Positions 1 to 26,741 of a stretch of DNA of 26,741 bases are shown here, one piece after another; positions within the stretch are counted from its first letter, which is position 1; the number at the start of each line of letters is the position of its first letter. Location of the stretch: positions 1-26,741 of IMG/VR virus record IMGVR_UViG_3300006752_003262; one strand, given 5' to 3'. The notes below the pieces were generated by a model. It ran no database searches. It was given only the letters and a program-made list of their open reading frames with translations, and was not told where the DNA came from. The DNA is from a virus (taxonomy: Duplodnaviria > Caudoviricetes). Both the position numbers and the translations under genes were made by a program.

Positions 1-72
1 CCGGAACCCGAACCTGAGCCGGAACCCGAACCTGAGCCGGAACCCGAACCTGAGCCGGAACCTGAGCCGGAA
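1..72 (+). repeat. Coding tandem repeat, unit ccggaacccgaacctgag x3 plus partial copies, encoding (Pro-Glu)12
   Basis: Directly visible; it may continue upstream of the window. Confidence 0.95.
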
Positions 73-672
73 GTCGTCACCATCAACGGTGAAGAAGTTG
101 ACGTTGAAGATTTCTTTGAAGAGTTCGCCGTTGAAGAAGAGTACGAAGAGCTAGCATTAGACCTCAACAGTCTTGGTATTGATATTGAGGGCGTAGAACT
201 GTCTGAGGTTGACGAGGCTGAAGAAAAAGTTGTTGAAGCACTTGACGCCATAGACGAGCAGCTAGCTGAAGATTTCTTGGATGTTGTTGACGGTGAAGTC
301 ACAGTCGAAGAGGTTAGCGCACTTGTGTCAGAAGCAAACTTTGATGAAATTTCTGACGACGGTAAAAAGATTCTTGTCACCGCCCTGAATGACGCTGGAG
401 GGGAAGTCAAAGAAGAGTTTGAGGACTCAGTTAACATCTTTGAGGATGACGCTTACAACGAGTACGTAGCAGATGGGTCTACCGTCGATACGGAAACTCG
501 GCGTACCGTTGTTGCAGCTACGGCAGCGGCCACTGTTGTTGCAGCGGCAGCATCTTCCGGCCCATCTGGTCCTGCTGGCGGAGGTGGCGGAGGTGGCGGT
601 GGCGGAGGCGGAGGCGGTGGTAGCAGCGACTCTGGCGGCGACAGAAAAAGTTCAAGAAGAAAGACTCGCTGA
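1..672 (+). CDS. 5'-truncated acidic protein with (PE)n linker, Ala/Val-rich hydrophobic stretch, Gly15 run and basic tail
   Basis: Frame 1 is open from base 1 (PEPEPE...VVTINGEEVDVEDFF...) and continuous with track ORF 277-672; stop TGA at 670-672. Confidence 0.85.
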   Translation, partial: PEPEPEPEPEPEPEPEPEPEPEPEVVTINGEEVDVEDFFEEFAVEEEYEELALDLNSLGIDIEGVELSEVDEAEEKVVEALDAIDEQLAEDFLDVVDGEVTVEEVSALVSEANFDEISDDGKKILVTALNDAGGEVKEEFEDSVNIFEDDAYNEYVADGSTVDTETRRTVVAATAAATVVAAAASSGPSGPAGGGGGGGGGGGGGGGSSDSGGDRKSSRRKTR

Positions 673-1914: not shown

Positions 1915-2885
1915 ATCGAAGCGTAGATTGCCTTCGCAATTGTTTCCCGTACATCTTCGTTTTCATCAAGGTACGCCTTGGTATTAACCCGCCCCTGTCC
2001 AATGTTCGTGCCCTCGTAGGCGTACCACGCACCCTTCTTATCAAGGATTCCCATTTGTGCAGCGATATCTACAATGTCCCCGGTTCGGCTGATACCTTCA
2101 CCGTAAGCAATCTCAAACTCTGCCTGCCTGAATGGGGGAGCGACCTTGTTCTTCACAACCTTAACACGGGTCTTGTTACCGACTGCTTCGGAAGCGTCCT
2201 TCAGTGTTTCAATGCGTCGAATGTCTAGGCGAACCGATGCGTAGAACTTTAGAGCCTTACCACCAGTAGTCACTTCGGGTGATCCAAACATGACACCAAT
2301 TTTTTCTCGCAACTGATTAATCATGATTAGTGTGGTCTTTGAGTTGTTCAAGTTTGCAACAATCTTACGCATAGCTTGAGACATGAGTCGTGCGTGTAGT
2401 CCAACATGACTGTCACCCATTTCGCCTTCAATCTCGGCACGGGGTGTAAGGGCTGCTACCGAGTCCACGACTACAACGTCTAGGGCACCTGATTCAATCA
2501 ACTTGTTCGTGATGGTCAGCGCCTGCTCCCCGGTGTCTGGCTGAGCAACGAGTAGAGAGTCTACGTCGCATCCGATTGCTTTTGCGTAGATTGGGTCAAG
2601 GGCGTGCTCAGCGTCGATGAATGCACACTGCCCGCCGTTCTTTTGTGCTTCAGCAATCACATGCAAAGCTACCGTGGTCTTGCCTGACGACTCTGGACCG
2701 TAAACTTCAGTGACACGCCCTCGTGGGAGGCCACCAACACCGAGCGCTAAGTCTAGGGCGATTGATCCTGTTGAAATGGTCTCTACGGCCATTGAGGCGT
2801 TGTCCCCGAGGCGCATGATTGCACCTTCCCCAAACTGTTTTTCAATCTGGCCCAGTGCGTCTTCAAGAAGTTTAGATTTGTCCAT
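1911..2885 (-). CDS. recA: Recombinase RecA (bacterial-type, 324 aa, no acidic tail)
   Basis: [16 protein letters not shown] Walker [48 protein letters not shown]. Confidence 0.98.
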
Positions 2886-2891
2886 AAGCGT

Positions 2892-2920
2892 ATTGTATGC
2901 TTTCGCTGGTCTTGAGTCAA
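2892..2920 (-). promoter_or_regulatory. recA promoter TTGACT-N17-TACAAT, leaderless (6 nt to ATG)
   Basis: Near-consensus elements; no SD before ATG 2885; palindrome cttga-g-tcaag (2911-2921) covers the -35. Confidence 0.75.
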
Positions 2921-2926
2921 GGGTGC

Positions 2927-2935
2927 TGGTACGAT
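2927..2935 (+). promoter_or_regulatory. Extended -10 TGgTACGAT, leaderless start at ATG 2942
   Basis: 6 nt between -10 and ATG; divergent from the recA promoter. Confidence 0.6.
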
Positions 2936-2941
2936 ATTTGT

Positions 2942-3310
2942 ATGAGTAAACGTGGTCCGAAGCGGATGGTAACTCAAGCTGTTCGTTTGGGTGAGTATGG
3001 GAAAACTAAGTGGCACATCGAACTTGACTGTGGGCATTCCGTGGAAAGCTCCCGTAAGCCCAAGATCAATGAAGATCGTCTATGCTGTAAAACGTGTGGC
3101 GCTCCGCCAGCGCCTGTTCCTTTGATGCAGGTTTTAGCAGAGGATGGAGAGTTTTTTGAGCCATACGAACCTATGGACGAAATAAAGACGAAGGCAGTAA
3201 TTGCGTCTAAGGTTGGAGTCCCCTTGGATCAGGTGGAGATTGTCAATGGCACAGCTACTGTCTTCTTGGACGCTCAGCAAGTGAAGATGTTGAAGTCTTC
3301 CTCTGCTTAG
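2942..3310 (+). CDS. Hypothetical protein with probable Zn-binding motif
   Basis: LDCGH...CCKTC; ATG 2942 fits the leaderless promoter better than the track start at 2897. Confidence 0.75.
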
Positions 3311-3763
3311 TCTCAGCCTGTCGGTGTATGTGTTTGGGTATAGAACACCTACCCTATCGTGTGGAGGTTGACGCCGCCCCACGATAGCCTTAGGCAATTC
3401 CCGTAGTGTTATATAAGTACTGTTCACTTCATGGACCCCAAACACCGCCTATTTTTTCAGCGATGCCCACTCTCCCTAGATATGGCTCTAGTAGCCCGTG
3501 TGCCGGAACTGCGTGGGCGCTTGCTTGTTCCGAATCTGTATCTCAAGTCTTGATGCTCTCCGTGCAGTGACTGGCATTCCGTCAAGAATGGTGTTCCAGT
3601 GTATCGTGCGATCCAAATCTTTACTCTGTGATACAGACGTGCCCGTCTTATCAGTAGTTAACCAGTTGCGTAACGAGTGTTACCCTCCGGTCCTTCAGTG
3701 AACGTTTATGTCATCGGGGTTCCCCGGTTTCAGTCTTGTGGCAGGTTTCTCCTTTGTAGGTTT
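3311..3763 (-). ncRNA. Candidate large structured ncRNA (~450 nt), family not recognised
   Basis: Largest non-coding gap in the window; own promoter; at least 8 helices including long-range 3422-3437/3689-3703, pseudoknot 3330-3338/3437-3445 and complementary loops 3368-3373/3580-3585. Ends approximate. Confidence 0.6.
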
Positions 3764-3769
3764 GCTGAT

Positions 3770-3798
3770 AGGGTAGTCCTCTGCGCTGTTTGTGTCAA
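3770..3798 (-). promoter_or_regulatory. Promoter TTGACA-N17-TACCCT firing into the non-coding gap
   Basis: Perfect -35, 17-nt spacer, TAnnnT -10; predicted TSS near 3763. Confidence 0.6.
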
Positions 3799-3811: not shown

Positions 3812-3840
3812 TTGATACCTTGACACTGTGTTTATACAAT
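3812..3840 (+). promoter_or_regulatory. whiB promoter TTGATA-N17-TACAAT
   Basis: Motif match; inverted repeat gtgtcaag (3792-3799) / cttgacac (3819-3826) spans the divergent promoter pair. Confidence 0.65.
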
Positions 3841-3863
3841 ATGCTTGTGATGAAGGATACAGC

Positions 3864-4112
3864 ATGTTAAACGTCAAAGCGCCCGAGTGGTTTAAGGAGA
3901 CTCCTTGTGTCGGAGAGGATAGGTTGTTCTTTTCGTCGAAGCCCACGTTACGTAGAGAGGCTATTTCTATGTGCGATAAAGTTTGTGGTGTCAGAGAACA
4001 GTGTTTACAGTTTGCATTAGACAATCAGTTAACAATTGGAGTTTGGGGAGGTCAAACGGGTCCTGATCTAGTTCGTTTGCTAGAGGGGTCTGAAGATGTT
4101 CACCGGGTATGA
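3864..4112 (+). CDS. whiB: WhiB-family Fe-S transcription factor
   Basis: Four Cys (C...CDKVC...C) and the GVWGG turn; ATG 3864 after aagga. Confidence 0.92.
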   Translation: MLNVKAPEWFKETPCVGEDRLFFSSKPTLRREAISMCDKVCGVREQCLQFALDNQLTIGVWGGQTGPDLVRLLEGSEDVHRV

Positions 4113-10747: not shown

Positions 10748-11542
10748 ATGATTCACAATATTACTGAGAACATTCAGGGGCTTGCTGTAGACATCGACTT
10801 ACTTATTCCCTTGGAAAACAATGCAAGACGAGGAGACGTAGACGCAATTATGGCGTCGTATTCTAAGTTCGGGCAGGTGAAGCCTATTGTCGCTGTTACG
10901 GGCGATAACGGTGAACTTACGGTGATTGCGGGCAACCACCAACTAGAGGCAGCAAAGCGATTGGGCTGGCAACAGATTGCGGTGTCTGTTGTTGATATGT
11001 CAACAACAGATGCGTTGGCGTTTGCTCTGGCAGACAACCGGATTTCAGAGTTGGGTGTAACCGACAACGACTTACTCTACGAAATGCTAACAGATGCCAT
11101 CGGTGATCATGAAGACTTTTTTGAAGTTCTAGGATGGGACGACTTTTCAGTTGCTGCTATTGAAAACAGTGTAATTGCTGATCAGCTTGGAGAAGTGATT
11201 GATCCGAATGGGGGTTGGACTCCGCCCGAGATTGTTATTAATGATATTACTTCCACAGAACCAGTTCAGACTCCGACGAGTGTTGACCGTCCTGCATCCG
11301 ACCCGACTACGTTAACCCCAACTGCATCGACAGAGAGTATTGTCACACAGGGCAGCACTGTTACAGGTAGTTCAGGGACAAAGAACGCTGCTATTCAGTT
11401 CACTCTCGTGTTTGAGAATGCTGATCAGCAGTCAAAGTGGTATTCCTTTTTACGGTGGTTAAAGGATCAGCCTGCTTACGACGGTGACACCACTTCAGAG
11501 CGTCTTCTGGACTTTATTGCTCAACACTCTCCACGAGGCTGA
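10748..11542 (+). CDS. ParB/Srx N-terminal domain protein with Thr/Pro-rich linker
   Basis: NAR, FGQVKPIV, IAGNHQLEAA, LADNR. Confidence 0.88.
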   Translation: MIHNITENIQGLAVDIDLLIPLENNARRGDVDAIMASYSKFGQVKPIVAVTGDNGELTVIAGNHQLEAAKRLGWQQIAVSVVDMSTTDALAFALADNRISELGVTDNDLLYEMLTDAIGDHEDFFEVLGWDDFSVAAIENSVIADQLGEVIDPNGGWTPPEIVINDITSTEPVQTPTSVDRPASDPTTLTPTASTESIVTQGSTVTGSSGTKNAAIQFTLVFENADQQSKWYSFLRWLKDQPAYDGDTTSERLLDFIAQHSPRG

Positions 11543-11543
11543 C

Positions 11544-12716
11544 ATGGCACGGCGTCGAATGTTTCTAGACATAAATTGTGTTGAGGCTGCGAGAGAGCGG
11601 ATGCGCCATGTCTATGACACGTTTGATACAGTCTGTGTTCAGTTCAGTGGTGGCAAGGATTCTACTGCATGTTTGTATCTTGCAAAAGAGATTCATGAAG
11701 AACGTGGGCTTGGGCCAGTTAAAGTAATCTTCCGGGATGAAGAAATGCTTTCTCCTGCGGTAGAGGACTATGTAAAGCGTGTCAGCAACTACGACTGGGT
11801 TGACATGGAGTGGTACTGTTTGCCTCAAGGTCAAGAGTTGTGGGTGCTGGGGCGCAGACAATATGTATTGTTGTGGTCAAAGAAGCGAGAGCGTAGTGGG
11901 CGCTTGTTCAGACCTTTTCCTGAAGGGTCACTTAGGGCAGAGCACTTTGGGTTAAACCCAGAGAAGGCAATTCCCCGTAAGATTGACGAGTATACCATGC
12001 ACGGTAAGAAAGGGCGAACGGCATTTATCACTGGAATCCGGGCTAATGAGTCTATGATCCGTTACCGGACAGTGACACAGAAGTTGAATGAAAACTATAT
12101 CAACCGACCTTTCAAACTTTCCAAGGCCATCCCAATGCGGTTCGCTAAGGTAATCTATGACTGGACATCTGACGATGTTCTTAAGTTCATCCACGAAGAG
12201 CATGACGGGGAGTACTGCGACTATTACGATTACGCAGCGATGAGTGGGGCTAATCAGCGGGTGGGTATCCCTCTTCATTCAGTGGCTGCTCGCCGTCTGT
12301 CGGATGTTTTGCGCACTGAACCTGACTTCTATGATGAACTGTATAGATGCTTCCCTAGTATTGAGGCACAGCGTCAGTTGTGGGCAGAGTACGATATTGA
12401 GGCGGCTATTGACTTTTACGCTGCCGAAGGATGGAAGGGCGTCAAGCACTGCGTTGATGATAATGTGCTAACACCAGGTCTTCATAGGGCTGCATTGGTG
12501 TATGCCAACAACTTCAAGAAGAAGCACGCCACAGATTCATACGGGTATCCAGTAGATCATTTGATTAGAACTTTGCTTTTAAACTCTTTCATGGGTTCCC
12601 CTAGCCCGGTTGGCCCTAAAACAAAGGCGCACAATAAACGTGTTGCGCTATTAGACGAAGAGACTCAGCAGTTAATGGATGCGGACAGTCTTGACATTCA
12701 AGACGACACTCGGTAG
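11544..12716 (+). CDS. PAPS-reductase-family (PP-loop) protein, IbrA-like
   Basis: AARERM, FSGGKDS, FRDEE, W.CLP, GIRANES..R, IYDW...DV; ATG 11544 follows the upstream stop. Confidence 0.88.
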   Translation: MARRRMFLDINCVEAARERMRHVYDTFDTVCVQFSGGKDSTACLYLAKEIHEERGLGPVKVIFRDEEMLSPAVEDYVKRVSNYDWVDMEWYCLPQGQELWVLGRRQYVLLWSKKRERSGRLFRPFPEGSLRAEHFGLNPEKAIPRKIDEYTMHGKKGRTAFITGIRANESMIRYRTVTQKLNENYINRPFKLSKAIPMRFAKVIYDWTSDDVLKFIHEEHDGEYCDYYDYAAMSGANQRVGIPLHSVAARRLSDVLRTEPDFYDELYRCFPSIEAQRQLWAEYDIEAAIDFYAAEGWKGVKHCVDDNVLTPGLHRAALVYANNFKKKHATDSYGYPVDHLIRTLLLNSFMGSPSPVGPKTKAHNKRVALLDEETQQLMDADSLDIQDDTR

Positions 12717-12719
12717 AGT
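12691..12719 (+). promoter_or_regulatory. Promoter TTGACA-N17-TAGAGT, near-leaderless start at 12727
   Basis: Consensus -35; the -10 starts with the upstream TAG stop; palindrome tcttga-cat-tcaaga covers the -35. Confidence 0.65.
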
Positions 12720-12726
12720 AACGGTA

Positions 12727-13248
12727 ATGGATTATTGTAAAACCTCTGAGTTAACCCCTGCGAAGTGGTCGTCTGCGTGTTACATTGTTGCACCCGACTA
12801 CAAGCGGCTATTATCGTCTATAGACACATACGGTATTCTCAGTCCAATTGTAATTCAGAAGAATGGTACAATCATTGACGGGTACCATCGCTGGATTATT
12901 GCAAACGAGTTGAAGATTAAAAAGGTTCCTGTTGCTGTAGTGAAGTGTGACGACGTGGAAGCTGTACTGCTACACATTGACATGAACAGATACCGTGGGA
13001 TTGTGATTGCCAAATATTTGTCTAGGTTGATGCAGCGTGTTATGCAGTCACAGCGCTATACCGAAGAAGAATTACGCACAAAGTTAGGCATGACCTACGA
13101 CGAGTTTGATGTGTTGCTGGATGGGACACTGATCAAGATGCGTAAAATTAAACAGCACACGTATTCCCCTGCGTGGGTTCCTATTGAATCCAAAAACGGT
13201 GAAGACCTTCACATCGAACGGCCCACGGGTCATTCCGAGCAAGCTTAG
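12727..13248 (+). CDS. ParB-like protein, IbrB-like
   Basis: SI..YG..SPIV, IIDGYHRW, NRYRG, C-terminal HTH-like LGMT..E and YSPAW. Confidence 0.85.
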   Translation: MDYCKTSELTPAKWSSACYIVAPDYKRLLSSIDTYGILSPIVIQKNGTIIDGYHRWIIANELKIKKVPVAVVKCDDVEAVLLHIDMNRYRGIVIAKYLSRLMQRVMQSQRYTEEELRTKLGMTYDEFDVLLDGTLIKMRKIKQHTYSPAWVPIESKNGEDLHIERPTGHSEQA

Positions 13249-15081: not shown

Positions 15082-15652
15082 TCCTAGCGAGCAAGAAAAC
15101 TTTGTTATTGCAATGACCCAACTAAAGAAGGGTGGGCATTATGTCGAACTAGGTGCTTTCAATTCCCACGAGGGTAGTAACACCCGTATTCTTGAAGAGG
15201 ATTTCAATTGGAACGGTGTGTCGTTTGAAATTGACCCTGAACGTAAGGAGCAGTTTACTTCCAATAGAAAGAACCCTTGTTTTGGTGATGCGTTGAGCTT
15301 TGACTATACAGAGTATTTCAAGTCACAGGAGTGGCCTAAGCAGATTGACTTTCTGCAAGTTGATATCGACAACGGGTATGATCAAGCTATGCGACCTGAG
15401 GGAAGTCCGTACACTTCTCTGCTTGGGCTAATTTCTTTACCTCTTACTGTTTATCGGTTTTCGGTTATCACGTTTGAGCATGATGCTAACATGTACTTTC
15501 GGAACCAATCTATTCGTGATGCACAGCGAGAGATTCTAGACGCCTTAGGCTACACATTAGTTGTTAGGACTATACACGAAGACTGGTGGGTTGATCCTAC
15601 TGTTATTCAGCCAGATATCTACAGGCAGCAGTTGAGGTGGGAAGTTCTCTAG
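15062..15652 (+). CDS. FkbM-family methyltransferase
   Basis: YVELGA...SNT..LE...W.G..E, IDFLQVDID, VITFEHD, EDWWV; ATG 15062 after ggaga. Confidence 0.8.
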   Translation: MQNQQFSPSEQENFVIAMTQLKKGGHYVELGAFNSHEGSNTRILEEDFNWNGVSFEIDPERKEQFTSNRKNPCFGDALSFDYTEYFKSQEWPKQIDFLQVDIDNGYDQAMRPEGSPYTSLLGLISLPLTVYRFSVITFEHDANMYFRNQSIRDAQREILDALGYTLVVRTIHEDWWVDPTVIQPDIYRQQLRWEVL

Positions 15653-16965
15653 ATGATGATTTCAATCTTGCGGCGAATGCCCATACCGAGTCCGGCGCAT
15701 AGGTTGAAGGCGTGGGTGGCGGCGTCAACTTGATCGTCGTGGACTCGTGCTTCGGGGAAGGACGACAGTTCATCAATGAAGTCTGTGGTCCAGTCGCCTC
15801 GTATTAGACGCACGTTACCGTTAGCTACAGCCGCCGCAAATGGCTTTGCTCTTGTTACTTTGTCGCCTGTGGCTCGTTGCCCTGAGAAGGTGTAGCCTGG
15901 CAGGACGTACCGAGCGTATTGGTCCACTAAGTTTTTACCTGCTGATCCTGGTTCTTGCTCCATCTGGATTGTTATCTCAGGCCCGTCCTCTTCAGCAGTT
16001 TCTTTAATAAACTTTTCAACTTTTTCACCTTTCGCACGAATGCGGCGTACATCTAGGATGTAAAAGACACCGTTATCAAATGCTCCGAGGCATCCAACTG
16101 TCCAGTCAGGATCAGGATTAGAGTTAGACGGTTCAGTTCCGGCTAAGTCCCAGAATCGCACCACAGTTGTGTCTTTACTCAAGTCTGGCATTTCGCTTGG
16201 TTCAATGACCTCAAAGCTACCACGGTCAAACATTGATCCGAGTGTGGTTGCCCACCAGTCACCAAACTCTAGGCGCTTTCGTTCGATGGGGTCTAGCTCT
16301 GCGAGCATGGTGCGGTAGGAGTCTGGGTCAATTCCGGGGTTATCAGTTAGCATTGAGGGAATAAAGATACGTCCCTTGGTTTTACCTTCAACTAGGAAAC
16401 GCTGACGGACCCAGTTAGGTGCAGGGTTAGTTGCACAGCGCATTCTGAGAGGGACTGAAGCTAGCGGACCACTTGCGGGGCGGCGTAAACGTGAGAACAT
16501 GTACCGGTAATCTGCTTCTCTGATTTCGGTAACCTCATCCATTCCGATGAACTGAAACTCTGAACCCTTGTATCGCAGATAGTCGTTGATGTTATTTAGG
16601 TAACCGAATGTTATTCGTGCCCCATTGGGAAACGTTGCAGTGTACGCATTTGCGTTCCAGTGTACATCATCAAACTGCATAATCCATTCTCTGAAACGGT
16701 CCATTAGAGCGCCAGGTAGGGCAAGGTCAGCGTATGTGCGCCTAAACAAGATAGCACTGTAGTTTGGGATGTCCACGTATTGTAGAGCGGCCATAATCAG
16801 TGCCGAGGATTTGCCCCCACCTGCGGCTCCACCAAACATTACTTCTTGTCCTTCTGACCGGAGAAAAACTTTTTGAGTTAGCGAGGGTTCTTCAACCCAG
16901 TATTCAGATCGCTTTGGTTCTAAATATGCTTTGATTTTTTCCCAGTCGGGAGTCTCTGTGGACAT
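15649..16965 (-). CDS. terL: Terminase large subunit
   Basis: Walker A GGAAGGGKS, Walker B FIGMDE, ATNP, nuclease WDLA and HDDQVDA; SD aggag precedes ATG 16965. Confidence 0.95.
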   Translation of the reverse strand: MSTETPDWEKIKAYLEPKRSEYWVEEPSLTQKVFLRSEGQEVMFGGAAGGGKSSALIMAALQYVDIPNYSAILFRRTYADLALPGALMDRFREWIMQFDDVHWNANAYTATFPNGARITFGYLNNINDYLRYKGSEFQFIGMDEVTEIREADYRYMFSRLRRPASGPLASVPLRMRCATNPAPNWVRQRFLVEGKTKGRIFIPSMLTDNPGIDPDSYRTMLAELDPIERKRLEFGDWWATTLGSMFDRGSFEVIEPSEMPDLSKDTTVVRFWDLAGTEPSNSNPDPDWTVGCLGAFDNGVFYILDVRRIRAKGEKVEKFIKETAEEDGPEITIQMEQEPGSAGKNLVDQYARYVLPGYTFSGQRATGDKVTRAKPFAAAVANGNVRLIRGDWTTDFIDELSSFPEARVHDDQVDAATHAFNLCAGLGMGIRRKIEIII

Positions 16966-16971
16966 ATCTGC

Positions 16972-17003
16972 TTGTCTCCTAGACAAATAAACGGTACAGT
17001 ATA
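16972..17003. promoter_or_regulatory. Overlapping divergent promoters for terL and the portal operon
   Basis: Plus strand: TTGTCT-N17-TACAGT-N6-ATG(17007). Minus strand: TATACT at 17003-16998 overlapping the same -10. Confidence 0.55.
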
Positions 17004-23009: not shown

Positions 23010-23189
23010 ATGAGACCCGCAGAAGTGGGAAGCAGGATTAGCCTCGCTAACGAAGCCTTACTTAATGTAGGGTCCAGGATTGTTTTAGGCTCCACGGTAG
23101 ACATCGAAGCGGTAGAATACCTAGAGGACGATGGCGTAATTTATGAGTTTAGACCGTTAGAGAGGTTTGGCGATTCTGATGCTGACTGA
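23010..23189 (+). CDS. 59-aa hypothetical protein (not in ORF track)
   Basis: MRPAEVGSRISLANEALLNV...FGDSDAD*; fills the gap and overlaps the next start. Confidence 0.6.
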   Translation: MRPAEVGSRISLANEALLNVGSRIVLGSTVDIEAVEYLEDDGVIYEFRPLERFGDSDAD

Positions 23190-26100
23190 AATTGAAAGAG
23201 CAGAGGTTGGAGCCTTTACCCTTAAAGTGGGACCTGAAGTCGGGCCTAACGCTGATGCTCTGACGAGTCTTACTCGTGGACGAGGGCCACGTAGGGGTAA
23301 CCTAGAAGACCTCTTGAAGTACTGGCGTCCGATCATGAAGAAGCCTGGCGGTTTTCGCCGTTGTGTCGTCATCCTCATGGATAAGCCTCAGTTTGGCGGC
23401 AAGCCTCAGCGAATCTGCGCTTGGTTGCACCACGAGATCACGGGCAAGTGGCCCAACGAAGGCAAAGGCAAGGGCAAGGGTAGCCGTAAGCGTCGTGGCC
23501 GTAGTGTACGGCGTGTTAGCAGTGCGGCTCGTAGGGGAAAGTCTGGGGAACTCTCTTCACATAATCAGGTGATTGAAGTGTCTCCTTTGCGTATCGCAAT
23601 TCGGGAGTCTAGAGACTTTGGTGGCGTGCTGGTTCAGCCTATTGCGGGTCGCCAGGGCGCAGTCGATATGAAGGCTGCGATGTTTTCTACGTATGCCTTA
23701 AAAGTCCCTGTCAACGAGGCGGTAAATGAAAAACGAGTGGGCATTTTTGGCGCTAACTCTCGTGCAGGCCAGGCCGCTCAAGCGGCTGGTAGTATTATTC
23801 TTCCGGGCGACATTTCAGATATTCGTAGCCCAATCCGATCACAAATTTATGAAACACTAACACCCGGTGGCGGTCGTGGTCGTCCGGGTATTCCTAGCGC
23901 TAGGCGTTTGATTGGTGGGCTAGGGCGTCGTGGTAGCCGTAGCACTGGTGGTGTGCGTAATAAGTTTAGGTGTCCTCCCGGATTCCAAAAGGGCGGAACC
24001 TTCACAAACGCTCAGTTCAGTACCTGTGGTGCTCAAATTTTGGGTATTCCTGGTAAGGGTGTAGGCTCACCTTCTTCTGGGGCGCAGCGAGCTTTGGCTG
24101 CGTTGGCTCGTGACGCTGCTCTTGTTCGGGAGATTGGTGACCTTCGGAGCAACCGTAATCCTTATGATATTATTCGTGCGGCTCAGATTCCCGTTGCCCC
24201 CAAGAAGGGTAGCCCCACCCGGAGGCAGACCTCTATCAACAATGTGTTGTCCCGTGCAGACGAGGCCGATTTCAGTTTGCGTGCTGTTAGGCGTGACGGC
24301 GTTATTTTGGAACCTGTTGTTTCTTTGCAGGCTTTGGGTAAGCTTGACGAGTTTGACGATTTAGCTGATGGTACTCTAATTGATCGGTATACTTCCGGGC
24401 AGATTGGTAAGGACATTGTTCCTGCGTTTTCTACAGGTCTTCGTGATGTTTATGTTGACATCCCTGAGTCGGGTTCAGTAAAGATTAGCAGGGTCGGTGG
24501 CGAGTTGACACCTACCGAAGTAGATAGTCTTCGTAGAAGTTTCCCTACTTCTATGCGTCGGGCAGCTAATTTACCTGACCCAAGCGCCGGAATCCGTGAC
24601 TATGCAGATAGGTCCGATGGTAGGTTCTCGGTAGACTTTGGTGAACTGAAAAACAATAAGTTTGAGGTTGCGGATAACAAGAACAAACTGATTCGTGTTG
24701 AAACGGCAGGCGGTAAAACTCTGAGTGTTCCGCAGTGGGTTTACGATACGTTCCTGTCTCGTTCTGCGCCACGCCGAGCAAAGAACGCTCCGGTCTATGA
24801 GATGATTTCGGAGGAGAAATCGGTAAACCCTTTTTTCTTATCCACCAAGACGATCACGGCGCTGACGCACCGAACGGCCAATTATCACGACTTGATTGAA
24901 GTTCGGGCCGCTATTTTTGCGGAGGGCCGAGACAACATTCAGTTTAAGAAGCGTCGTGCTGGTGGGCGTGCTCGTGCAATGTTCAATCCGGGTCTCAACC
25001 GATATCAGTGCCCTCCCGGTACTCGATATGGTGGTCGTATTACTGACCAGTTTGGCCGGAACTGTGGCTATTCCCTTCCACGAACAGTGGTTAACAGTTT
25101 GGTTGACCTTGGTACCCGTATTGAGGACGGTATGGAACGTCGGCGTAAACGTCGTCAGGAGCGTGGTTCCCGTCGTGAGCGTTTGGGTTCTGCTGTTAAG
25201 GAGAAGTACGATAATTCTTTAAATAAGCTTGCTGACGTTATGGACAAAATGGCTAGCGTTTTGGACAAGACGGAGGATAAGCGTCCGGGTCGGATTGGTC
25301 CGAGTATTCAGGATCGACGGAATGCTGCTGAGTTGACAGATGAAGATCGTAACCTTTTGGGGGGTGCGCCTTTAGCTGACGCTTTAGATAATTTAAAGAA
25401 TGTTGTTAATGGACAAGACTTTAATAACCCTGATCTTCCTGAGCTTCAAAAAGCCTATAAGGCTGTGGAGAAGGCTGCTGGTTTAGAGGCCGGTCGTCTT
25501 ACGGACAATCCTCCGAAGACTGACAATGACCGCAAGATGGGCAAGCGCATACTTGATTCAATTGCTGGTATTTTGGACCGGATTGCTAATTTTGTTGATC
25601 CTGATACATCTCGTCGGGACCGAAGTGAGAACCGTCGTCCTGCTGCGTCTGCTGCTTCGGCTCCGAAGGCTCCGAAAAAGTTTGATTCTCCTCGGAAGCC
25701 TAAGAATGTGGACAACTTTGCGCAGCAGTCTATTGGTGGCCGTCGTAAGAAGGTTGATGTTCCTGAGCTTAAAGACTTGTCTGATGATGACAAGACGAAG
25801 TTAGACGTTGCAATTCAGAGTGAGTTTAATGAGTTGTCATCGTTTTGGGCTAATCGTCTAAACAAAGATATTAATGATTTTTCTGAAAAAGATATTCGGA
25901 AGTATCTAAAAGCCAACAAGAAAGATAAGGACGCCCGTCTTGAGCGCCGTCGTTATAATGACTGGTTAGAACTTAACGAGTTGAAGCGTGCCCAAGACGA
26001 GTTGCGTTTTGATGACGATTACGAAGATTTCATTGGTCGTCTTGCGCCGAACCGTCGTGATTCTATTGTAAGTTCACTGAAGCCTCCTCAAGACCCTCCG

Positions 26101-26741
26101 GCTGACGCTAATGTTCCTGGCGATGTTGATGTTCCCGGTGGCGTAAACATAGAAACTCCTGCTGCTGATTTGCCTAAGACTCCTAAAGATTATGGTCCTG
26201 ACGGGTTCAAAAAAGAACGTGGCAAGATGAAGAACTTGGAGTTTATCAATAGTCTTTCTGATGAAGAGTTAGAAAGCTATAAGCAGGCACATATTGAGTA
26301 TAAGAAGCAACGGGAGGCTGATGGTGAGACTGCTTACGGTATGAAAAACCGGATTAAGCAGATGGAGCAGATTCAGGCTATACGAAGTAAGCAACGTGGC
26401 GAGTCTAAGTCACCTCCAACTTCTAAAGACTTGTCTGTCAATGGTTACACGCAGGAACGTAATAACTCTATAAATGTAACCTCTGATCCGTTTGGCGATT
26501 CAGATGAGACATTTATAGTAAGTTTGACAGACGAAGAACTTGATGGGTATATTGAGAGCTTCAACAAGGACTTGAACGATCCAAAGACGCCACCTATGTC
26601 TCCGAGTAAGAAGCAGATCAGAGCGAAACTTTTGGGTGAGCGTAGTAGGCGTGATAAGAACGAAGATTCTAAAACGGCTGTAGACAGCGCCGAGTTGGAG
26701 ATGGGTGATCCTGATCCAGACGGTTTCCATCCGATTGACAA
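23179..26741 (+). CDS. Giant modular protein (>1187 aa, 3'-truncated), probably virion-internal
   Basis: Frame 1 read codon by codon from ATG 23179 (gagg upstream) to the window end with no stop; absent from the track, presumably because no stop is reached. Confidence 0.9.
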   Translation, partial: MLTEIERAEVGAFTLKVGPEVGPNADALTSLTRGRGPRRGNLEDLLKYWRPIMKKPGGFRRCVVILMDKPQFGGKPQRICAWLHHEITGKWPNEGKGKGKGSRKRRGRSVRRVSSAARRGKSGELSSHNQVIEVSPLRIAIRESRDFGGVLVQPIAGRQGAVDMKAAMFSTYALKVPVNEAVNEKRVGIFGANSRAGQAAQAAGSIILPGDISDIRSPIRSQIYETLTPGGGRGRPGIPSARRLIGGLGRRGSRSTGGVRNKFRCPPGFQKGGTFTNAQFSTCGAQILGIPGKGVGSPSSGAQRALAALARDAALVREIGDLRSNRNPYDIIRAAQIPVAPKKGSPTRRQTSINNVLSRADEADFSLRAVRRDGVILEPVVSLQALGKLDEFDDLADGTLIDRYTSGQIGKDIVPAFSTGLRDVYVDIPESGSVKISRVGGELTPTEVDSLRRSFPTSMRRAANLPDPSAGIRDYADRSDGRFSVDFGELKNNKFEVADNKNKLIRVETAGGKTLSVPQWVYDTFLSRSAPRRAKNAPVYEMISEEKSVNPFFLSTKTITALTHRTANYHDLIEVRAAIFAEGRDNIQFKKRRAGGRARAMFNPGLNRYQCPPGTRYGGRITDQFGRNCGYSLPRTVVNSLVDLGTRIEDGMERRRKRRQERGSRRERLGSAVKEKYDNSLNKLADVMDKMASVLDKTEDKRPGRIGPSIQDRRNAAELTDEDRNLLGGAPLADALDNLKNVVNGQDFNNPDLPELQKAYKAVEKAAGLEAGRLTDNPPKTDNDRKMGKRILDSIAGILDRIANFVDPDTSRRDRSENRRPAASAASAPKAPKKFDSPRKPKNVDNFAQQSIGGRRKKVDVPELKDLSDDDKTKLDVAIQSEFNELSSFWANRLNKDINDFSEKDIRKYLKANKKDKDARLERRRYNDWLELNELKRAQDELRFDDDYEDFIGRLAPNRRDSIVSSLKPPQDPPADANVPGDVDVPGGVNIETPAADLPKTPKDYGPDGFKKERGKMKNLEFINSLSDEELESYKQAHIEYKKQREADGETAYGMKNRIKQMEQIQAIRSKQRGESKSPPTSKDLSVNGYTQERNNSINVTSDPFGDSDETFIVSLTDEELDGYIESFNKDLNDPKTPPMSPSKKQIRAKLLGERSRRDKNEDSKTAVDSAELEMGDPDPDGFHPID
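24810..24837 (+). promoter_or_regulatory. Predicted -1 programmed frameshift cassette 2
   Basis: GGAGG (24810-24814), 13 nt, in-phase C.CCT.TTT (24828-24834), overlapping T.TTT.TTC; the -1 frame stops at TGA 24897-24899. Confidence 0.6.

Follow-up and report, generated by a model that had tools for sequence, protein, structure and literature searches.

Genomic locus and neighbouring genes

The window, that is the whole 26,741-nt stretch analysed (IMG/VR record IMGVR_UViG_3300006752_003262), is a tailed-phage fragment with genes for a holin, RecA, WhiB, a single-strand annealing protein, an exonuclease, a terminase, a portal protein and a prohead protease. The element under study lies on the minus strand between whiB and a convergent ORF, and the features of this locus are listed below.

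3331..3764, minus strand: predicted RNA of ~430 nt, its ends estimated from the promoter on one side and the last conserved pairing on the other
3770..3798, minus strand: sigma70-type promoter motif, -35 TTGACA at 3793-3798, 17-nt spacer, -10 TACCCT at 3770-3775
3828..4112, plus strand: divergent whiB, likely start ATG at 3864, own promoter at 3812-3840, Pfam Whib E=1.2e-12
2897..3310, plus strand: convergent ORF of 137 aa without a known family, stop codon 20 nt past the predicted 3' end of the RNA

The minus-strand promoter TTGACA-N17-TACCCT reported by the first-pass annotation was confirmed in the window, and its arrangement (TTGNNN, 17-18 nt, TANNNT) was found in all 50 homologues with a complete 5' end, out of 53 sequences. 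Transcription by a host-type RNA polymerase is very probable, as predicted from this motif. The whiB gene is placed divergently upstream of the element in 43 of the 47 loci with enough flank. A TGTCAAG/TGTAAA word (window 3815-3826), kept in most homologues ~20-25 nt upstream of the -35 box of the RNA, forms an inverted repeat with that box; placed between the divergent promoters, it may be an operator or a second -35. Two loci (L473 and L474, ~2100-3280) carry an insert of ~1.15 kb with a 98-aa ORF which separates the RNA promoter from whiB, so the adjacency of the RNA and whiB is not obligate.

The convergent 137-aa ORF is the downstream neighbour in 15 of 51 loci (the window and 14 others), and at 33 of the 51 a co-oriented gene starts 33-63 nt away, belonging to at least five mutually unrelated kinds including recA and a methyltransferase. 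These changing neighbours argue for a free-standing RNA, and the element is independent of any fixed downstream gene. A riboswitch-like 5' leader acting in cis on the gene behind it would agree with the closeness of the co-oriented genes and with the search for a canonical terminator closing the RNA, which found none at the window locus; however, the convergent orientation of the next gene in the window and 14 further loci and the unrelated nature of the co-oriented genes render this explanation very improbable.

Phage lineage and host setting

All homologues are contained in a single lineage of whiB/recA phages, whose genome size of ~150 kb is implied by related IMG/VR records of 66-110 kb at 44-74% completeness. 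The element is present as one copy in each of the five related partial genomes searched. A domain scan of two related records covered 125 of 213 listed ORFs; one related record encodes a sigma70 factor, DNA polymerase A and ribonucleotide reductase. The sigma70-family phage gene at L432:8257-9273 is preceded by DNA polymerase A and directly followed by tRNA-Leu. This tRNA is single copy in each of three partial genomes, tens of kb away from the element. WhiB is a pointer to an actinobacterial host, and the best single-domain RecA structure matches are mycobacterial entries. The RecA homologue search named no credible host. The RNA runs in which the element sequence is best represented are marine.

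Several further observations were made on the gene content of these phages. Consecutive ParB-like, PAPS-reductase-like and ParB-like genes at window 10748-13248, also seen in the related genome G001, are possibly a DNA-modification module. The terminase is on the strand opposite to the portal gene (window 15649-16986; L429:5309-8782; L428:4069-6912). LAGLIDADG and intein-like HINT domains are present in the terminase of G001, and a LAGLIDADG domain in the G001 primase-helicase; the window terminase has neither kind of domain. An ORF of at least 1191 aa at window 23167-26739 runs past the window end, and at the same place the relatives have a very long ORF (2344 aa, L437:2135-9169). In a second related genome, G002, nine or more 2OG-Fe(II)/TauD oxygenase genes are densely arrayed at L434:144-11315, together with a glutathione peroxidase. 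Window 1-672 encodes an acidic protein end with Pro-Glu repeats and a Gly/Ser-rich tail, downstream of which lies the holin.

Homologues, conservation and coding potential

Viral and metagenome contigs were scanned with proteins and with patterns, which yielded 550 loci. The profile match obtained in 275 of them gave 54 distinct full cores of close homologues plus one divergent member at ~52% identity, L495. As pattern scans favour copies that keep the pattern, the neighbouring 170-aa protein was added as an unbiased anchor. Among the 57 loci anchored in this way, whiB and the element were both present in 42, nine ended less than 600 nt upstream, and both were absent from six, which belong to more distant phages.

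The median identity of the element DNA to the window was 77%. It was higher than that of whiB (58%) and of the neighbouring 170-aa gene (63.5%) at every one of 32 loci, than that of the annealing gene (69%) at 31 out of 32, and than that of recA (76%) at 15 out of 21. Codon-type conservation, looked for as the mark of a hidden protein, was not found: length differences between homologues fall evenly over the three frames (16/19/17), indels break the reading frame, and changes per column by position modulo three (2.78/3.01/3.07) have no three-base rhythm. The tested ORFs overlapping the element gave no Pfam or PHROG match. The element is non-coding.

Searches for more distant relatives were also carried out. 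A 21-letter pattern had two matches in GTDB genomes, both chance by profile search. A core-junction pattern scan, with a gap setting one base longer than L495 fits and hence L495-like copies out of its reach, returned 48 matches and no new divergent member; three of these (L514, L528 and L546) are chance. A 40-nt tandem duplication was observed within the variable hairpin after P3 in one homologue (L007:3768-3807 region), which suggests that this hairpin tolerates insertions.

Secondary structure and covariation

The alignment comprised 52 distinct sequences of 61-99.8% identity, after removal of seven partial duplicates and of one copy in which 40 nt are duplicated internally. The elements of the proposed fold are as follows.

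3715..3726, minus strand: hairpin P1, 100% paired, two-sided changes in 3 of 4 pairs
3706..3714, minus strand: near-invariant AUGACAUAA, reading Met-Thr-stop, in 53 of 54 sequences including L495; one variant ends UAC
3422..3703, minus strand: long-range helix P2, closing the core domain (3697-3703/3422-3428 and 3689-3693/3433-3437)
3468..3679, minus strand: helix P3, nested in P2 (3675-3679/3468-3472), absent from the first-pass annotation
3515..3644, minus strand: pseudoknot P4, 3641-3644 with the P9 loop 3515-3518
3534..3638, minus strand: arm P5-P6-P7 with hairpin P8 (3570-3600), from the covariation model and RNAalifold
3368..3585, minus strand: kissing contact of the P8 loop 3580-3585 with the P13 loop 3368-3373
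3442..3532, minus strand: hairpins P9 (3504-3532), P10 (3476-3491) and P11 (3442-3466, A-rich loop), 100% of cells paired
3334..3441, minus strand: short 3' pseudoknot core, 3438-3441 with 3334-3337
3354..3387, minus strand: 3' hairpin P13, 91.6% paired, two-sided changes in 4 of 8 pairs

In the 5' to 3' direction the order is leader, P1, AUGACAUAA and P2, which encloses P3 (itself enclosing the P5-P8 arm, P9 and P10) and then P11; after P11 follow the closing strand of P2, P12, P13 and the 3' tail, and three contacts cross this nested frame. On 40 sequences the 94-pair model was 94.3% paired, compared to 84.1% for shuffles and 35-41% when the model was slid, and covariation was present as two-sided changes in 50 of the 94 pairs. 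Covariation over all pairs was assessed by a G-test against a tree-based null (own script, 25 simulations, not R-scape); three pairs reached E<0.05, and the six pairs at E up to 0.12 are all in the final model. When only proposed pairs were considered, 22 of 88 had E<0.05 and 37 had p<0.01 against 0.9 expected, figures which lean in favour of the model as it was drawn from the same data. These results show the predicted base-pairing pattern to be kept by compensating changes across more than 50 related phage sequences.

RNAalifold recovered most of the nested helices unaided, but not P13. The long-range helix P2, one of those recovered, has two-sided changes in 9 of 12 pairs. The P3 pair 3676/3471 is U-A, A-U or G-C in 52 of 52 sequences (all-pairs E=0.04), the P10 pair 3490/3477 has an all-pairs E<0.05, and P12 in the RNAalifold register pairs in 33-40 of 40 sequences. 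Pseudoknot P4 is 100% paired, its G-C pair changing to A-U in 10 of 40 sequences. The kissing contact forms 5-7 bp in 52 of 52 own loop pairs with 11 different loop sequences, whereas of 1928 swapped pairs 531 reach at least 5 bp. Of the predicted tertiary contacts, this one and P4 have the best support. The most conserved junction, 3602-3608 and 3561-3567, is located in the P5-P6-P7 arm and its unpaired residues are invariant.

All 11 pairings drawn by the first-pass annotation are present and fully paired in the window, and eight of them have two-sided changes: 3354-61/3380-87, 3476-80/3487-91, 3535-42/3630-37, 3570-74/3596-3600, 3575-79/3586-90, 3715-18/3723-26, 3422-28/3697-3703 and 3433-37/3689-93. 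The other three, 3465-70/3513-18, 3670-74/3679-83 and the full 9-bp pseudoknot 3330-38/3437-45, have no covariation (0 of 20 pairs) and are jointly 72.3% paired against 71.9% for shuffles. A core of the pseudoknot does survive, 4-6 bp being possible in 51 of 52 sequences, with no two-sided changes. That drawing was thus partly wrong, and it missed P3, the kissing loop, the P4 pseudoknot and the Shine-Dalgarno tail. The GAA/AUGA internal loop, which had been offered as evidence of orientation, is seen in that form in 20 of the 52 sequences, so the orientation rests on the promoter instead.

The folding energy of the single sequence does not discriminate the element from shuffles. The minus strand gave an MFE z of -1.15, with 15 of 100 shuffles equally good; the plus strand gave -1.30 and a further single-sequence folding -0.82. 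A folding energy like that of shuffles had been named beforehand as counting against a structured RNA, and this is what was obtained. The window sequence of the element holds 63 helices of at least 5 bp against 62.8 in shuffles, and four of at least 8 bp against 0.76, a number reached by 3 of 200 shuffles.

A DNA element, such as a replication origin or an operator array whose repeats mimic RNA helices, might be expected between divergent promoters near recA; five CACG words are present and the transcript is a predicted one. Nevertheless, nested long-range pairs, tolerance of G-U and a six-base loop contact co-changing across 11 variants are features of a single strand, and the promoter points into the element in 50 of 50 cases, making this reading extremely improbable. 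Other motifs were considered and rejected. A K-turn made of the words GAUGA and CUGA fails as both are paired elsewhere, and a palindromic dimer site after P2 is a perfect palindrome in fewer than half of the 52 sequences. A second Shine-Dalgarno word with a near-cognate start near the 3' terminus was likewise discarded, as its frames are short and have no relationship to each other, and either the antisense gene or a downstream promoter constrains them.

The divergent member L495

L495 is situated between whiB and a homologue of the 137-aa ORF, with a profile E of 6.5e-15 and 46-56% identity to the other members. On placement by eye in this one sequence, helices P1, P2, P3, P5-P7, P9-P11, the 3' pseudoknot (6-7 bp) and P13 all pair. 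L495 retains the promoter arrangement, AUGACAUAA and the P7 junction. Its P8 hairpin is reduced to 3 bp, and neither the kissing loop nor P4 was found in this sequence. Retention of the junction 3602-3608/3561-3567 and loss of the kissing loop would make the former core and the latter peripheral, an assignment resting on one sequence, by eye and not statistical. The 13 nt at L495:3446-3458 are identical to the beginning of the Ocean-VII model of Rfam, probably by chance (E=1.1, well short of the gathering threshold).

The same junction could be the active site of a ribozyme or of a ligand-binding RNA, as its invariant unpaired residues survive at 52% identity while the peripheral arms change; catalysis is frequent among large ornate bacterial RNAs (PMC5737381). 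Against this, no Rfam ribozyme or riboswitch matched at E up to 10, the element interrupts no gene, a substrate or guide segment is not evident, and the invariance is partly due to collecting homologues by conserved patterns. This explanation is considered unlikely.

The 5' leader and its Shine-Dalgarno word

The region ahead of P1 comprises two features.

3727..3764, minus strand: A/C-rich unpaired 5' leader, self-folding median -1.7 kcal/mol
3749..3753, minus strand: Shine-Dalgarno (SD) word AGGAG, 21 nt before P1, not followed by a start codon

All 52 leaders long enough to judge retain AGGAG, and the commonest base of the flanking columns occurs in 22-45 of 52; as all homologues share one ancestor, the 52 copies are not 52 independent events. 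It is also the most enriched 5-mer before the ATG starts of these phages (16.7-fold, 58 of 383 starts), where the usual spacing to ATG is 4-8 nt. Only one of 50 homologues has a start codon behind the AGGAG of the element. The linker to P1 is 17-22 nt long and consists of 78% A+C (569 of 728 letters), and the distance to the AUG of AUGACAUAA is 30-35 nt. In L495 the word is AAGGGG, which can pair with the generic anti-SD through G-U and is followed by a 20-nt linker. The anti-SD octamer used for the duplex energies is the generic one. With it the leader duplex has a median of -8.1 kcal/mol, against -4.1 for shuffled leaders (n=53). The five-base core of this octamer is given in the abstract of PMC10783764.

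The footprint of a free 30S subunit in E. coli extends from -15 to +15, as stated in bioRxiv 10.1101/2025.04.04.647229. The 4-8 nt spacing together with this E. coli footprint to +15 amounts to 19-23 nt, which would bring the edge of a docked 30S to the start of the fold. Binding of the 30S through the SD tail is probable on these grounds.

A tiny mRNA was also considered, in which a 30S would pause at the upstream SD until P1 opens; a ribosome translating AUG-ACA-UAA would then park at P2 and switch the fold. The near-invariance of AUGACAUAA, extending to L495, is what such a reading would expect, as are the always purine-rich 5' strand of P1 and the beginning of P2 11-13 nt past the A of AUG. 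Yet the stop is lost in one variant, and this together with an ACA third base that never varies points to constraint at the level of bases; the pairing of P1 with the anti-SD is weak too (median -4.3 kcal/mol). Such a small message seems quite improbable.

Comparison with known RNA families

The first-pass annotation had found no match to tmRNA, RNase P or group I/II introns, and the searches bear this out. Rfam 15 gave no hits in the window at the gathering threshold (ROOL, GOLLD, OLE, raiA, RNase P, tmRNA and introns included); with the limit relaxed to an E of 10, the window gave AniS alone (E=6.6) and five homologue loci gave nothing, and ARAGORN found neither tRNA nor tmRNA in the window. 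A group I/II intron was rejected on the negative Rfam result and on the position of the element between a promoter and intact genes, and mapping by eye to the intron core failed because the candidate strands belong to the covarying hairpins P10 and P11. Searches of five genomes, 44-74% complete, for TROVE, reverse transcriptase and CsrA (the partners of Y RNA/Ro60, retron/DGR and Csr systems) found none, although such a partner could be encoded by the host, and a RegB search of five partial genomes, in which no positive control matched, likewise found none. By BLASTN the element has no match to any cultured phage, including those bearing the Pleft RNA described below.

Engagement of the ribosome, a similar size and several pseudoknots are known from tmRNA, which is present in some phages. 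The element differs in having neither tRNA-like ends nor a conserved tag frame, in accordance with the negative ARAGORN and Rfam results.

The Pleft ncRNA of the cluster A mycobacteriophages L5, D29 and StarStuff resembles the element, by description, in its ~500 nt, its early actinophage promoter and its lack of a canonical terminator; PMC5712189 describes it as abundant, stable and arising from a host-toxic region. The Pleft region is divergent and indel-rich, whereas the element is among the most conserved DNA at its own locus. The nearest likeness to the leader is STAB-SD of the Bacillus thuringiensis cry3A mRNA, a 5'-proximal start-less SD that can pair with 16S rRNA, binds the 30S and blocks RNase J1, as reported in PMC4113751. 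STAB-SD protects an mRNA, whereas the SD of the element heads a non-coding structured RNA, 17-22 nt from its first helix.

ROOL and GOLLD are similar in kind only: they are large multi-junction RNAs of phages and prophages, their kissing loops and pseudoknots covary (PMC5737381; PMC12286853), and their function is still unassigned. ROOL averages 581 nt and GOLLD is often longer than 800 nt, compared to ~430 nt here, and both are often beside tRNA genes, whereas the element is not and is tied to whiB and a start-less SD tail. This likeness raises the explanation that the tail only stabilises the RNA and that the body is a self-assembling scaffold or cage like ROOL, GOLLD and OLE with contacts between copies. 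The three crossing contacts and the A-rich loop of the element would suit it, and the covarying kissing loops of ROOL and GOLLD are intermolecular bridges (PMC12286853). On the other hand, L495 keeps the core without the P8 arm and the kissing loop, a covarying palindromic loop was not seen (the AUGACAU homodimer has -0.5 kcal/mol), and the element is smaller than ROOL with no adjoining tRNA. A scaffold or cage is therefore doubtful.

No description of this RNA was found in the literature, of which subscription papers were thinly covered. PMC10690425 predicts 8,495 candidates of 29-151 nt from IMG/VR; six motifs of the element are absent from the three of its supplement files that can be searched, and a fragment of this RNA may be listed among those candidates. 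The proposal of an undescribed large structured phage RNA with its own promoter was upheld by the covariation, the absence of a coding signal, the promoter in 50 of 50 homologues and the lack of an Rfam match. On the sequence evidence it is a real, uncatalogued and likely new class of large structured phage RNA, outside every family tested.

RNA runs and possible transcription

In three RNA runs (X1-X3) the phage is present in long or tiled contigs over genes and gaps alike, with flat depth across 28.9 kb (X2) and 13.2 kb (X3); this coverage is DNA carry-over or uninformative. Four further runs from four studies (X5, X6, X9 and X10) contain seven contigs of 80-194 nt at depth 2-4, all inside the element, the loose ends of which match four known element variants. 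These short contigs are a weak hint of a transcript only. The missing cover of the flanks in these runs proves nothing, as the flanking genes have diverged and the runs were chosen by this sequence.

Proposed function and significance

In the preferred explanation, the element's own promoter would give a free, folded, non-coding RNA of ~430 nt which likely acts in trans. Its start-less SD tail would dock on the small ribosomal subunit (30S) of the host, and docking could protect the RNA from 5' decay, as STAB-SD does against RNase J1, and hold the pseudoknotted body at the mRNA entrance. The docked RNA would likely tie up or modulate ribosomes during infection. That the start-less SD both docks the RNA on the host 30S and thereby affects host ribosomes during infection is put forward tentatively, at somewhat less than even confidence. 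Nothing found here connects the structured body, which bears most of the conservation, with the ribosome, and AGGAG could equally be read by a protein or a nuclease. Moreover, L495 is a single sequence, the footprint figure comes from E. coli and the folding energy is no better than that of shuffles. A stronger form, in which an RNA-only trap threads its tail through the 30S mRNA channel and clamps the entrance with its triply pseudoknotted body, is rather doubtful.

Few bacterial or phage RNAs are both large and highly conserved, and where the job is known it is mostly that of a ribozyme or of a part of the translation and secretion machinery (PMC5737381). A start-less SD placed one footprint from a fold would be a specific and cheap handle, which makes its partner directly testable in vitro. 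If the 30S is not bound, the element would still be a new 430-nt fold with L495 as a natural minimal variant marking its core. If the 30S is bound, a new route of phage control over translation would be revealed, and if the ribosome trap is true, a new class of RNA would park or take over host ribosomes without any protein.
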